Origin: Escherichia coli
GTDB taxonomy: Bacteria; Pseudomonadota; Gammaproteobacteria; Enterobacterales; Enterobacteriaceae
Assembly: GCF_002854065.1 (NCBI RefSeq)
Contig: NZ_CP024147.1
Direction: 5' to 3' (one strand)
DNA: 64,000 nucleotides
Below the pieces are notes generated by a model, which saw nothing but the letters and a program-made list of their open reading frames with translations, ran no database searches and was not told where the DNA came from. Below are positions 5,418 to 32,330 of this stretch, one piece after another. A program made the translations under genes and the position numbers. Each line of letters starts with the position of its first letter. The stretch's first letter is position 1.

Positions 5418-5450
5418 TAAAAACAACGCGGGGCAAGGAATGGCTGCCCC
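5418..5450 (-). terminator. rho-independent terminator-like hairpin (GGGGCAGCCATTCCTTGCCCC then T-run on minus strand), probably the original ydeO terminator now separated from ydeO by IS1
   Basis: GC stem 5430..5450 followed on the minus strand by a T-rich tract; lies just downstream of where ydeO would have ended before IS1 insertion. Confidence 0.4.
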
Positions 5451-5520
5451 ATTTAATTCTTACGTAGCGTGTGTGGTTGACTACCCGTTAGCAAATAATC
5501 AAATAGCTAAAGCACTCATC

Positions 5521-5529
5521 GTGTTGTCC
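5521..5529. repeat. 9-bp target-site duplication GTGTTGTCC (left copy) of IS1 copy 1
   Basis: identical 9-mer at 5521..5529 and 6298..6306 immediately flanking the IS1 ends. Confidence 0.9.
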
Positions 5530-5544
5530 GGTAATGACTCCAAC

Positions 5545-6048
5545 TTATTGATAGTGTTTTATGTTCAGATAATGCCCGATGACTTTGTCATGCAGCTCCA
5601 CCGATTTTGAGAACGACAGCGACTTCCGTCCCAGCCGTGCCAGGTGCTGCCTCAGATTCAGGTTATGCCGCTCAATTCGCTGCGTATATCGCTTGCTGAT
5701 TACGTGCAGCTTTCCCTTCAGGCGGGATTCATACAGCGGCCAGCCATCCGTCATCCATATCACCACGTCAAAGGGTGACAGCAGGCTCATAAGACGCCCC
5801 AGCGTCGCCATAGTGCGTTCACCGAATACGTGCGCAACAACCGTCTTCCGGAGCCTGTCATACGCGTAAAACAGCCAGCGCTGGCGCGATTTAGCCCCGA
5901 CGTATCCCCACTGTTCGTCCATTTCCGCGCAGACGATGACGTCACTGCCCGGCTGTATGCGCGAGGTTACCGACTGCGGCCTGAGTTTTTTAAATGGCGG
6001 AAAATCGTGTTGAGGCCAACGCCCATAATGCGGGCGGTTGCCCGGCAT
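5545..6048 (-). CDS. insB: IS1 InsB frame (transposase made as InsAB' by -1 frameshift)
   Basis: 167-aa [19 protein letters not shown]... identical in both IS1 copies; overlaps insA in the -1 frame. Confidence 0.9.
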
Positions 6049-6242
6049 CCAACGCCATTCATGGCCATATCAATGATTTTCTGGTGCGTACCGGGTTGAG
6101 AAGCGGTGTAAGTGAACTGCAGTTGCCATGTTTTACGGCAGTGAGAGCAGAGATAGCGCTGATGTCCGGCAGTGCTTTTGCCGTTACGCACCACCCCGTC
6201 AGTAGCTGAACAGGAGGGACAGCTGATAGAAACAGAAGCCAC
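5967..6242 (-). CDS. insA: IS1 InsA (zinc-finger transposition inhibitor)
   Basis: 91-aa [42 protein letters not shown] with CxxC...CxxC. Confidence 0.9.
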
Positions 6243-6275
6243 TGGAGCACCTCAAAAACACCATCATACACTAAA

Positions 6276-7037
6276 TCAGTAAGTTGGCAGCATCACCGTG
6301 TTGTCCGTGTTCATACCGGTGTGCCTTTGACAACGGTACTCCTTAGAAACTCTCTTCGGACTGTTGCCGAAATGTTTGCGGAACGCATAAATAAAATAAG
6401 ATGTACTGGCATAACCACATTGTTCGGCAATTTTATTGACTGAACCTTCTACGCGTATCAAATTTTTTGCGTGCTGCATTCTGGCATCTAAAAGAATCTG
6501 TGAGAATGTCGTTTGCTCTTGCTTAAGTTTTTTCTTCAACAGGCTTTCACTGATGTACAGGCAGTCACAAATATCTTTCAGCTTCCATGGGTGCGCCAGC
6601 TTCATGTTGACAATATTTCTCACTTTCCCGGAAACGGATAGCACACCGTTAGTTAATAGTGTAATGAAACCTTTGCATGCGGCAAAAATAGACAGGCAAG
6701 AAAAAAGCAAAAGTTCTGAAAAATTATGATGATTGCGTTCTTCCGAGTTGAGATAAGCAATCATTTCATTAAGCAATCCAGTCGGTACATTAGAAGCACG
6801 TAAAAACTTCGCAGGAACAGGCACCGTCACTGTCTGGATGTTAGTGCATTGTAGATATTTTTTAATGGTATTTTCATTAAATCCGATTTCTTTAAAATGC
6901 CGCTCATAAGGTTCAAAATGCGTACGAACAGCGTTATCTACCATCAGGATCTCGCCGTCAGAGAAGGCGTAATCTTTATCTAAAATGTTAGCGTTGAAGG
7001 CATGATGAATAAATATAACAGAACAAACGAGCGACAT
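6276..7037 (-). CDS. ydeO: AraC-family acid-resistance regulator; last 6 codons and stop supplied by the IS1 terminus
   Basis: 253-aa ORF with C-terminal AraC HTH region; reading frame crosses the IS1 junction at 6297/6298 and ends ...NTVMLPTY inside the IS1 end. Confidence 0.85.
   Translation of the reverse strand: MSLVCSVIFIHHAFNANILDKDYAFSDGEILMVDNAVRTHFEPYERHFKEIGFNENTIKKYLQCTNIQTVTVPVPAKFLRASNVPTGLLNEMIAYLNSEERNHHNFSELLLFSCLSIFAACKGFITLLTNGVLSVSGKVRNIVNMKLAHPWKLKDICDCLYISESLLKKKLKQEQTTFSQILLDARMQHAKNLIRVEGSVNKIAEQCGYASTSYFIYAFRKHFGNSPKRVSKEYRCQRHTGMNTDNTVMLPTY
6298..6306. repeat. 9-bp target-site duplication GTGTTGTCC (right copy) of IS1 copy 1, inside ydeO coding sequence
   Basis: identical to 5521..5529. 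Confidence 0.9.
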
Positions 7038-7111
7038 TTTATCTCCTTAAAACAATAAAGTTTTTATCGATACTTTTTTAACATTTCATATTTATAATTT
7101 GCTGTTTATTT

Positions 7112-7309
7112 TCAGTCTTGCAAACTATTGATAATGAAATGTGTAAGATCTCTTGCAATGCGACCCATTTCTGAAATGCCCAGCTGATCAATTGCCGAAA
7201 AAATGGCTATCAACGTAAGGGTCAGTAATAAGACAACCACAATTACAAACATGATTTCTTTATAGTTGTCTCTTTGCGTGATTTTGTTTTTCACTGTGGT
7301 CGAATGCAT
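7112..7309 (-). CDS. safA: small membrane protein connecting EvgS/EvgA to PhoQ/PhoP
   Basis: 65-aa ORF with one hydrophobic helix FVIVVVLLLTLTLIAIFSAI; immediately upstream of ydeO as in the safA-ydeO operon. Confidence 0.8.
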   Translation of the reverse strand: MHSTTVKNKITQRDNYKEIMFVIVVVLLLTLTLIAIFSAIDQLGISEMGRIARDLTHFIINSLQD

Positions 7310-7420
7310 TTCAAATATGTTTATTTAGCGGATAACGTTAAAAATCGTTAATCAGTATGCTTAATATAACAGGCTGGAGAAAAGAGGAAATAGGACTGGT
7401 GCTTCAGTACTGAGCGGAGT

Positions 7421-7438
7421 TTCTTACAGCTGTAGGCA
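7421..7438. promoter_or_regulatory. EvgA-box-like 18-bp motif TTCTTACAGCTGTAGGCA upstream of safA
   Basis: near-dyad motif, nearly identical to the one at 10080..10097 upstream of ydeP; resembles recalled EvgA box TTCPyTACA...TGTAPuGAA. Confidence 0.5.
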
Positions 7439-7556
7439 GAAGTTTATATCTTATAGTATGTAGTTTAATTTAATCCATGTGAGCAAATTGCGCGATAATA
7501 GTCAATGAGGAATTCTTCTGCTGTGCGGATGACAGCAGAAGAAATGAGAAGAGGCA

Positions 7557-9836
7557 TTAATTTGATGGTTCTAATTCAACCGGAATACTTTTATAGCCAG
7601 GAATGCCACTTAATGGATCGTGGTTATCAAGTGTTAGCATGTGATTCGATTCTGGAAAATAGGTCACCAGTGAGCGGTCAGCCATAGGGTAAATGACCAC
7701 TTTTAATCTATCCATGCGGCGTGAGCTGCGCTTACCGTCTGGCGTAAGCGCAATAAGATTAACTCTTTCGCCGTTTTTTACACGGCAAATTTTAGCTTGT
7801 TTAGCACTCATAAAGACCACATCTCGTTGACCGAATACCCCTCGATAACGATCATCCATACCATAAATCGTCGTGTTGTACTGATCGTGACTGCGTACTG
7901 TCGCCATGACCAGCTTACTGTTAAACGCTGAAGAGGGATCTTCTAACAGCCCTTTGCTGGTAATGAAATTAGCCTTACCTGACGGCGTCATCCAGCGCCT
8001 TTCAGCAGCTGCATTTATCAGGTGAAAACCTCCAGGATGTCGGATGCGCTGGTTATAATCGGCGAACTCTGGCAGCACAGCTTCAATGTCATTGCGAATG
8101 CGATCATAATCTTCCACCAGATACTCCCAGGCTACCACGCTCTGGGGTAGTGCTGCCTGCGCGATTCCCGCGACCACTGCACACTCTGATTTCAGCATTA
8201 CATCGGCGGGTTTTAACACGCCACGCGAGGCATGAATCATCGACATTGAATCCTCAACGGTTACCGCCTGCGCACCGCTTTTTTGCATGTCAATCTCGCT
8301 ACGTCCCAGAACCGGCAGAATATAGCTATGCCGTGCGGTCAGCAGATGAGAGCGGTTAAGCTTAGTGGCTACGTGTACCGCCAGATCTAATTGCGTTAAC
8401 GGTACAGCGCTCGCTTCCCGATCTGGCATTGCCAGTGCAAAGTTGCCCCCCATGCAGATCAATGCTCGAGCCTGCCCTGAACATATTGCTTGCATGCTGG
8501 CAATTGCAGCATGTCCAGGTGCTTGAGGTGGTGTGAAGCCATAGCGCTCACCCAGGCGAGCCAGAAACTCTGCAGACGGTTTCTCGGTGATACCGACGGT
8601 TCGGTCGCCCTGTACATTAGAGTGGCCACGTAGTGGGCAGATACCCGCACCAGGCTTGCCAATGTTACCTTTCATCAACAGCAGATTGACCAGTTGCTGT
8701 ACATTCTGGGTACCATGTTCGTGCTGAGTGATCCCCATTCCGTAACAGATAATGGTGCGTTCGGCAGCGGCATATGCATCAGCCAGTTCGGCGATTTGTG
8801 TCTGACTTAGTCCAGAAATACGTTCGATATCTTTCCACTCGGAATTGAGAACGTCACGGCGTAGCTCGTCAAAGCCGACGGTATGCGTTTGAATAAATTC
8901 GTCATCCAGCAATGAGGGCCGACCTGCGGCACTTGCAGCATCATCGCGCTCAATTAACAGGCGCATCATCCCCTTGAGCAACGCCATATCGCCACCAATG
9001 CGCACGTTGTAGTAGGCACTGGCCAACTGAGTCTCAGAGTTCGTCAGCATTTCAAACGGGTTTTGCGGTGCGGTAAATCGCTCCAGGCCACGTTCCTGTA
9101 GAGGATTGATGGCGATCATTTTCGCTCCCCGTTTCACTAAAGCGCGCAACGAAGTCAGCATGCGAGGGTGGTTTGTACCAGGGTTATGCCCAATGCAAAT
9201 GACTAAATCGCACTTCTCAAAGTCTTCCAGCAACACGGTCCCTTTACCTACACCGATACTCGCTGCCAAACCCACGCTTGTCGGTTCATGGCACATGTTG
9301 GAGCAGTCGGGAAAGTTATTGCTCCCGTATTCACGGGCAAAAAGCTGATAAAGAAAGGCAGCTTCATTGGAAGTGCGGCCCGAAGTATAGAATTCAACCT
9401 GATTGGGATCACTATAGCTTTGAAGGCGTGCGCCAATTTCATTGAAAGCTTGTTGCCAGCTTAATGGCTTGTAACAGTCGCTGACGGCATCATATTTCAA
9501 AGGCTGAGTGAGTCGCCCCGCAGCCTCAAGCTCGTGGTCTCCCCAGGTAAGTAATGATTGAACCGTATTCTCAGCAAAGAAAGAGGCGTTTACCTGCTTA
9601 TCCGTGACTTCCCAGGCGATTGCTTTTGCGCCGTTTTCACAAATGTCGAATGACGCACTGTGCTTAGGATCTGGCCATGCACAACCCGGACAGTCAAAGC
9701 CCTCTGGCTTATTCATGTCAAACATGGCAATAACATCCTGGCGTATATCCATCTGCTTACGTACTGCATTCGCTACGGATTTAACAGCACCCCAACCACC
9801 GGCAGCACCCTGGTAGGATTCAATTTTTTTCTTCAT
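7557..9836 (-). CDS. ydeP: molybdopterin-oxidoreductase-like acid-resistance protein
   Basis: 759-aa ORF; N-terminal Cys cluster CPGCAWPDP and formate-dehydrogenase-like composition. Confidence 0.85.
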
Positions 9837-10079
9837 CTACTTATCCTGTGTGGAAATGAATTATTAGGATTTGTAATAGCGATGATGCACAGTACATACA
9901 AAGGGATTATCGCCAACATGGATATATAAGAGTAGGGGACTACTCTCTTTCTATTTTTAATCTATTATCGTTAAACCATAGATTAAATACGATAAGGTAA
10001 GCATCATCTCTCATAGTGTTTAAATTAACATATTTTTCAATATAAAAAATAAGACTCTGGCTTCAATTGTGCGCGGATT

Positions 10080-10097
10080 TTCTTACAGGTGTAGGAT
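10080..10097. promoter_or_regulatory. EvgA-box-like 18-bp motif TTCTTACAGGTGTAGGAT upstream of ydeP
   Basis: shares TTCTTACAG-N-TGTAGG with the safA upstream motif; embedded between GCGCGGAT/ATCCGCGC inverted repeats. Confidence 0.5.
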
Positions 10098-10169
10098 AAT
10101 AGCTTTCACAAAATAATTATCCGCGCAATTTTCGTGAATGGAGCGCATAGACTAAGGTCAAAATCACAA

Positions 10170-30795: not shown

Positions 30796-32330
30796 ATGCA
30801 AACGAGTGATACCCGCGCGTTACCGCTACTTTGCGCCCGCTCGGTTTATAAACAGTATTCAGGGGTTAATGTCCTGAAAGGCATCGATTTTACGTTGCAC
30901 CAGGGGGAGGTCCACGCCCTGTTCGGCGGCAATGGTGCCGGTAAATCGACGTTAATGAAGATTATTGCCGGTATTACCCCTGCTGATAGCGGTACGCTGG
31001 AGATTGGGGGCAACAACTACGTCAGATTAACGCCAGTTCATGCTCATCAGCTGGGTATTTATCTCGTTCCCCAGGAACCGCTGCTTTTCCCAAGCCTGTC
31101 GATAAAAGAAAACATCCTGTTTGGGCTGGCAAAAAAACAGCTCTCCATGCAGAAAATGAAGAACTTGCTGGCGGCGCTGGGCTGCCAGTTTGATCTGCAT
31201 AGTCTGGCAGGATCGCTGGATGTCGCCGATCGCCAAATGGTGGAAATCCTCCGCGGGCTGATGCGCGACTCGCGGATTCTGATCCTCGATGAACCTACCG
31301 CCTCGCTTACCCCTGCGGAAACCGAACGCTTGTTTAGTCGCTTGCAAGAGCTGCTTGCTACTGGCGTGGGTATTGTTTTTATCTCGCATAAGCTGCCGGA
31401 AATTCGCCAGATTGCCGATCGAATTAGCGTGATGCGCGACGGAACCATCGCCTTAAGCGGCAAAACCAGCGAACTGTCTACCGACGACATTATTCAGGCC
31501 ATCACCCCAGCGGTACGGGAAAATCGCTCTCTGCCAGCCAAAAATTATGGCTGGAGTTACCTGGCAACCGCCCACAACATGCCGCAGGAACGTCGGTGCT
31601 GACACTGGAAAATCTGACTGGCGAAGGTTTCAGGAATGTCAGCCTGACGCTAAATGCCGGAGAAATTCTGGGTCTGGCTGGGCTGGTGGGTGCCGGACGC
31701 ACAGAACTGGCCGAGACGCTCTATGGTCTACGTACTTTGCGTGGCGGACGCATTATGCTGAATGATAAAGAGATCAATAGATTATCCACTGGAGAACGTT
31801 TACTGCGCGGTCTGGTTTATCTGCCGGAAGATCGCCAGTCATCCGGACTGAATCTCGATGCTTCGCTGGCCTGGAACGTCTGCGCCCTTACTCATAACCT
31901 TCGTGGATTCTGGGCGAAAACCGCGAAAGATAATGCCACCCTGGAACGTTATCGTCGGGCGCTGAATATTAAATATAACCAACCGGAACAAGCTGCACGG
32001 ACATTATCCGGTGGTAACCAGCAAAAAATCCTGATTGCCAAATGCCTGGAAGCTTCGCCGCAAGTATTGATTGTCGATGAGCCGACGCGCGGCGTGGATG
32101 TCTCGGCGCGTAATGATATCTACCAACTGTTGCGCAGCATCGCCGCACAGAATGTGGCTGTGCTGCTTATCTCCTCTGATCTGGAAGAGATCGAACTGAT
32201 GGCAGATCGTGTGTATGTGATGCATCAGGGCGAAATTACCCACTCTGCACTGACCGGGCGCGATATTAATGTCGAGACTATTATGCGCGTTGCCTTCGGC
32301 GATAGTCAGCGTCAGGAGGCGTCATGCTGA
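30796..32330 (+). pseudogene. lsrA: AI-2 ABC transporter ATPase LsrA, split by a -1 frameshift in an A-run into ORFs 30796..31602 and 31596..32330
   Basis: two ABC ATPase halves (Walker [10 protein letters not shown] and GLVGAGRTE) in different frames; adding one A to the A4 run at 31520..31523 gives a continuous ~511-aa protein. Confidence 0.8.

Follow-up and report, generated by a model that had tools for sequence, protein, structure and literature searches.

An intact IS1 element sits in the last codons of ydeO in this Escherichia coli chromosome and gives the encoded regulator six new C-terminal residues at unchanged length. The window analyzed here is one stretch of 64,000 nucleotides (contig NZ_CP024147.1, assembly GCF_002854065.1), and all coordinates are positions in it. 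The explanation we favor, with a probability of about 0.8, combines a recent IS1 transposition, a YdeO protein with the tail VMLPTY that probably still works, and an altered 3' end of the ydeO RNA. The event is an ordinary, strain-specific IS1 insertion; only its placement, at the end of the gene and in this frame, is unusual.

The insertion

The element and its flanks comprise the following features.

5530–6297, minus strand: IS1 copy 1, intact, 768 bp, with terminal repeats; its left inverted repeat (IRL) faces ydeO
6275–6297, minus strand: IRL, GGTGATGCTGCCAACTTACTGAT; the plus strand carries its reverse complement
5530–5552, minus strand: right inverted repeat, GGTAATGACTCCAACTTATTGAT in plus-strand reading
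5521–5529: ydeN-side copy of the 9-bp target-site duplication, GTGTTGTCC
6298–6306: ydeO-side copy of the duplication, GTGTTGTCC; the coding strand reads GGACAACAC
5967–6242, minus strand: insA, 91 aa, GTG start; IS1 repressor and N-terminal part of the transposase
5545–6048, minus strand: insB reading frame, 167 aa, predicted to yield the InsAB' transposase together with insA through a -1 frameshift
5985–5993, minus strand: TTAAAAAAC, the A6C slippery motif for programmed -1 frameshifting, at IS1 position 305 from the IRL
6263–6290, minus strand: promoter-like site (CTGCCA, 16 nt, TATGAT) at the insA promoter position, partly inside and partly next to the IRL; a consensus match only
20454–21221, minus strand: second IS1, identical to copy 1 at 768/768 positions, with its own 9-bp duplication, AACCGTCCC

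Copy 1 has the length of IS1 (about 768 bp), points in the same direction as ydeO and is bounded by the imperfect IS1 terminal repeats (inverted, about 23 bp), both of which were matched exactly. The products of insA and insB match the NCBIfam family NF033558 (IS1 family transposase). The insA/insB' arrangement with its A6C motif is present in the sequence and the frameshift itself is predicted; PGAP annotates identical IS1 copies with 'programmed frameshift'. The IS1 promoter lies partly within the IRL, which is where the promoter-like site falls. Many E. coli chromosomes and plasmids have copies annotated 'IS1-like element IS1B family transposase' that match copy 1 at all 768 positions.

IS1 typically duplicates 9 bp of its target. 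A script check found that the two copies of GTGTTGTCC abut the element exactly on both sides as a perfect 9-bp match, for which the chance probability at two fixed positions is about 4e-6, and the empty site holds one copy. On the ydeO side, GGACAACAC runs from the third base of codon 244 through codons 245 and 246 to the second base of codon 247. The original prediction placed a 9-bp duplication inside the ydeO reading frame and the element in the last ydeO codons; both statements hold, with the repeats at 5521–5529 and 6298–6306 and the insertion within codons 244–247. It also named misassembly as a way in which it could fail, and here the perfect duplication and an independent draft assembly with the same junction indicate that the insertion is genuine.

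That draft is GCA_035821435.1, whose contig JAPQBK010000098.1 has the identical ydeO–IS1 junction. It matches the window at 6223–10037 over 3815 identical nucleotides and breaks off inside IS1, as short-read contigs do. Among complete genomes the picture is one of an empty site: the reconstructed 300-nt sequence is 100% identical in at least 19 E. coli chromosomes, the site is one uninterrupted piece in 5348 of the 5426 complete E. coli genomes, and a 120-nt probe centered on the junction found it in 0/5426. Two nominal full-length matches to the junction were rejected; they had joined separate fragments, with IS1 at other sites. The 32-mer GGCAGCATCACCGTGTTGTCCGTGTTCATACC can serve as a marker sequence for the allele.

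An assembly artefact, in which IS1 was misplaced at a repeat boundary and the true genome has an intact ydeO, is extremely improbable. IS copies are the usual places for assembly errors, the junction is missing from all 5426 complete genomes, and there may be sequence errors elsewhere in the window, for example at a frame break near 31596 in an lsrA-like gene. Against this, assemblers do not create a perfect 9-bp duplication at both junctions, removal of the element gives back the natural sequence exactly, and the independent draft agrees with the window at 100% identity across 3815 nt. The insertion is not an artefact, given the perfect target duplication and the independent assembly. It is derived and clean.

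The two IS1 copies of the window are identical and each has its own duplication, so both are simple and probably recent insertions. An identical second copy, together with an intact insA, A6C motif and insB, suggests that the element is recent and active. Recombination between the copies, which lie 14.9 kb apart, was considered and rejected since each is flanked by its own matching 9-bp duplication; comparison of the duplications shows no inversion or deletion between them. The insertion in ydeO is thus probably a recent, simple transposition of an intact IS1, in a lineage of E. coli with few representatives in public data.

Three further observations concern the elements. A very large autotransporter-like ORF on the minus strand is interrupted by the second IS1, which leaves parts at 15549–20420 and 21195–21746. 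As direct repeats 14.9 kb apart, the two copies could mediate deletion of the ydeP–fimbrial–hipBA segment between them. A plus-strand ORF of 56 aa at 5440–5610 spans the ydeN-side junction into the right end of IS1 and is most likely spurious.

The chimeric reading frame

The reading frame of ydeO continues across the junction and ends within the element.

6276–7037, minus strand: chimeric ydeO ORF, 253 aa plus stop; residues 1–247 native, the rest encoded by IS1
6279–6296, minus strand: VMLPTY codons (residues 248–253), inside the IRL
6276–6278, minus strand: TGA stop of the chimeric ydeO, inside the IRL
5499–5520, minus strand: orphaned native ydeO 3' end, namely the third base of codon 247, ATG AGT GCT TTA GCT ATT (MSALAI) and TGA

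The ydeO frame enters the IRL one base out of phase (G/GTG ATG CTG CCA ACT TAC TGA) and extends 18 nt into it before reaching TGA. The IRL therefore contributes the third base of the Thr247 codon, the V-M-L-P-T-Y codons and the stop. Translation of the minus-strand ORF ends in GMNTDNTVMLPTY followed by the stop. When IS1 and one repeat copy are removed in silico by joining 5529 to 6307, the protein is again 253 aa and ends in GMNTDNTMSALAI. Native ydeO has six codons after Thr247, and the IS1-end frame likewise reads six codons ahead of its TGA. The 253-aa length is kept because the stop in the IS1 end happens to fall where the native six codons would end; the equal length of the two forms is a coincidence of stop placement.

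These results bear out the original prediction, made from the letters alone, that the ORF ends NTDNT-VMLPTY within the IS1 terminus (translation of 6276–7037), that the pre-insertion gene ended NTDNT-MSALAI (in silico removal of IS1), and that six residues are swapped at unchanged length (253 aa in both forms). Alignment with YdeO from strains lacking the insertion agrees: natural proteins end in MSALAI or MNALAI, never in VMLPTY. Residues 1–247 of the chimera are identical to a natural allele.

Read inward from the IRL, the three frames close after 0, 6 (VMLPTY) and 8 (GDAANLLI) codons. With stops in all three frames, host ORFs that enter this IS1 end are quickly terminated, and no YdeO–InsA fusion protein would form.

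The chimeric protein is on record as WP_101969398.1 / AUJ96036.1 under the plain RefSeq name "YdeO", and was found on one 4.64-Mb chromosome and one draft contig. Since its length equals that of the native protein and the new tail lies outside the conserved domain, the chimera passes as an intact YdeO in annotation (WP_101969398.1). An IS can in this way rewrite the end of a regulator at its native length, after which profile-based annotation calls the protein intact. Only a look at the surrounding DNA reveals chimeric alleles of this kind.

Consequences for the protein

The gene is ydeO by both score and position. Against the YdeO equivalog model NF007407 (cut-off 348), the chimera scores 596.3 bits with a match over residues 1–248, and the restored protein 606.2 bits over 1–253. 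The double helix-turn-helix domain is intact, and comparison of the window ORFs with annotated loci gives the gene order ydeN–ydeO–safA–ydeP.

The swapped residues begin at 248, at least 17 positions past the AraC-type DNA-binding domain. Pfam HTH_18 spans residues 157–231, and HTH_AraC matches at 147–182 and 199–229. Among solved homologues, the DNA-binding domain of GadX (3mkl) aligns to YdeO 138–238. Full-length Rns and CsvR align as far as residue 230, and their own ends follow 5–7 residues further on.

Conservation of the tail depends on how far one looks. Almost all full-length E. coli YdeO alleles end in M(S/N)ALAI, and the tail is polymorphic within the species at residues 238 (S/R), 245 (G/D) and 249 (S/N). 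Its uniformity in E. coli could reflect constraint or merely recent common ancestry. A YdeO-like protein of 79% identity has an unrelated and longer tail, and relatives at 36–43% identity end about 10–20 residues earlier. In an AlphaFold model, pLDDT is below 50 at residues 237–253 and 72–87 in the helix-turn-helix region, and 241–253 have no secondary structure; the model is mediocre (mean pLDDT 62, from an alignment of 8 sequences), so that the low tail scores point only weakly to disorder. From the domain matches and the model together, the swapped tail is probably a variable, disordered extension outside the AraC-type DNA-binding domain.

Yamanaka et al. (2014) found by ChIP-chip that YdeO with a C-terminal 3xFLAG bound the gadE promoter and other targets (PMC4222967). 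That fusion is an extension on an over-expressed protein; a chromosomal ydeO-3xflag strain yielded too little protein (PMC4222967). The protein of the window differs in having its tail replaced, at native level, rather than extended. Binding by the fusion shows that an altered YdeO C-terminus is compatible with DNA binding in vivo. By this analogy, and from the domain layout and the model, YdeO with the VMLPTY tail probably retains function, that is, it would fold, bind DNA and activate gadE and its other targets. The original prediction of a regulator that is altered but probably functional is consistent with all of these computed results.

In the literature searched, we found no description of this IS1–ydeO allele. 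The C-terminal extension is also altered in a natural allele from other isolates, a 241-aa YdeO variant (P0020; change at about window 6345), in which a frameshifted tail ending in SPKRVLRSIVVKGTRV replaces everything after residue ~230.

Consequences for the transcript

ydeO is the distal gene of the safA–ydeO acid-response operon, and the insertion changes what follows it.

5429–5451, minus strand: intrinsic-terminator-like G+C-rich hairpin followed by a U-tract; found in a consensus scan and present in both the minimum-free-energy and centroid folds

This hairpin lies about 50 nt past the native stop (5499–5501) and is now about 0.8 kb past the new one. Its position and structure suggest that it is likely the native ydeO terminator. 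If so, the ydeO message would no longer end at its own hairpin and would continue into IS1, which safA–ydeO transcription would enter in the sense direction with no terminator between. The transcript might then be terminated by Rho within IS1 or extend about 0.8 kb as far as the old hairpin. Either way, carrying the whole of IS1 as a 3' UTR or terminating inside it could change mRNA stability and YdeO dosage. Judged from the sequence, effects at the RNA level, through the displaced terminator and the joining of ydeO to IS1 in sense, seem more plausible as a source of phenotype than the tail swap. An Rfam search of the whole window gave no match at or near the insertion.

The main challenge to a working YdeO is an effective knock-out, in which the new tail or the new mRNA 3' end destabilizes the protein or the mRNA, and ydeO is a cryptic pseudogene annotated as intact. 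The chimera scores so far above the NF007407 cut-off that such a defect would escape notice. IS1 insertions are classically polar and Rho-sensitive, about 0.8 kb now separates the new stop from the hairpin that would shield the 3' end of the message, and nearly all full-length E. coli alleles retain the M(S/N)ALAI tail. Loss of ydeO is also tolerated in nature, as there are other strains in which IS1 insertions and deletions plainly disrupt ydeO. However, the conserved fold, residues 1–231, is wholly untouched, conservation of the tail is absent beyond E. coli, and the C-terminal 3xFLAG fusion still binds its targets (PMC4222967). Polarity, moreover, would have no target, since no gene of the operon lies downstream of ydeO. 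We consider a knock-out unlikely and retain the reading in which YdeO probably works and its RNA 3' end is altered.

Transcription into IS1 could also affect the element. A 2025 study (PMC12428005) reported more insAB' transcription and more IS1 transposition when host transcription came in from upstream, and less of both with an rrnB terminator in the upstream position. Machida et al. (1983), as cited in that study, report that read-through represses IS1 cointegration. As these reports disagree on read-through, the sign of any effect on the present IS1 is uncertain. A more far-reaching proposal is that this IS1 has been wired to EvgAS acid stress by read-through from safA–ydeO, with a parallel shift in YdeO level and in the acid-resistance set-point; we hold this to be quite doubtful. 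If it were true, acid-induced transcripts would change transposase or InsA output and IS1 activity would be stress-responsive in this lineage, and the new tail and lost 3' hairpin could move YdeO levels and, with them, the set-point for glutamate-dependent acid resistance.

This allele offers a natural way to ask whether the EvgAS–YdeO–GadE circuit depends on the C-terminal extension of YdeO and on the gene's own terminator, and whether the activity of IS1 changes when host transcription enters it.

Target choice and neighborhood

IS1 prefers AT-rich targets, and the ydeO region fits this preference: G+C is 33% in the ydeN–ydeO spacer and 40% in ydeO, compared with 48% in the window. IS1 occurs within 1–2 kb of ydeO in 13 of the 5426 complete genomes, at at least 9 other sites, which fall in ydeN, in the ydeN–ydeO spacer, inside ydeO and upstream of safA. 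Insertions inside ydeO have left clear pseudogenes in LR-33 and SFE8. A hotspot for IS1 at ydeO was rejected, as 13/5426 is about the number expected by chance when a genome has IS1 at about 11 places (median). An apparent shared orientation of these IS1 copies was also rejected; it arises from the search, which joins pieces on one strand.

The insertion might instead have been selected, either because the new C-terminus alters the stability or activity of YdeO or because disturbed H-NS silencing alters expression of the ydeN–ydeM sulfatase genes. The AT-richness of the spacer and of ydeO relative to the window would suit the second route. For the first, the native hydrophobic -ALAI ending is, we presume, loosely like C-terminal degradation tags. 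Silenced operons such as bgl can be activated by IS1 insertions (PMC11043490). Several results speak against selection: the allele is present in only two assemblies; a consensus scan found no outward promoter-like site at the right end of IS1 facing ydeN; and same-orientation IS1 near ydeO in about 13/5426 genomes resembles random scatter, with no signal of recurrence. Our literature search also found no work on YdeO turnover through its C-terminus by Lon or ClpXP. Selection is thus very improbable, and a recent transposition that left YdeO probably functional remains our preferred reading.

The surroundings of ydeO vary in other ways. In the nearest E. coli genomes (99.2–99.4% identity), window 6298–15500 aligns in three pieces and corresponds to about 12.96 kb, compared with 9.2 kb here; this strain thus appears to lack about 3.7 kb of the ydeQRST fimbrial (usher) region. 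Clean in-frame deletions in other isolates have joined ydeO to one of three partners: ydeP (GCA_012880655.1), a fimbrial chaperone gene (SRR6108609) or the FimH-like ydeQ (P0018). These three fusions share a ydeO endpoint at codon 18 (the sequence after the junction is ILDKDY; position 3059 in L013 and 3071 in L014, equivalent to window 6986); upstream, the endpoints are different (window 9278 and 13056). At the two junctions that were examined (L013 and L014), the shared sequence is at most about 3 bp and there is no IS.

Farther away, an lsrA-like ABC ATPase gene is split into overlapping ORFs at 30796–31602 and 31596–32330, with the frame break near 31596. Either the gene (window 30796–32330) is a pseudogene with a frameshift or the break stems from a sequencing error. 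The sole Rfam match above its gathering score in the window is STnc560 (RF01407), at 52553–52766 on the minus strand, full length with 281.9 bits. STnc560 is an Hfq-binding sRNA.

Comparison with known systems

The element itself does not differ from known IS1 (IS1B copies): length, terminal repeats, insA, A6C site, insB and 9-bp duplication are all the same. What sets it apart from other IS1 copies is only its insertion site, seen in 0 of 5426 complete E. coli genomes. As in other IS insertions that truncate or replace C-termini, the host frame enters the IS end and stops within a few codons. Unlike typical replacements of this kind, the new tail has the same length as the lost one and lies outside the conserved domain.

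Compared with the YdeO of the EvgAS–YdeO–GadE acid-resistance circuit, a member of the AraC/XylS family, the protein of the window ends in VMLPTY in place of M(S/N)ALAI. Compared with native ydeO, the gene is now separated from its putative terminator by an IS. The closest parallel for this arrangement is IS1E in yrhA of K-12 (PMC12428005), which likewise lies in the same orientation as the upstream host gene with no terminator between. The upstream transcript differs: here it is the acid- and EvgA-inducible safA–ydeO message, which may reach insA.
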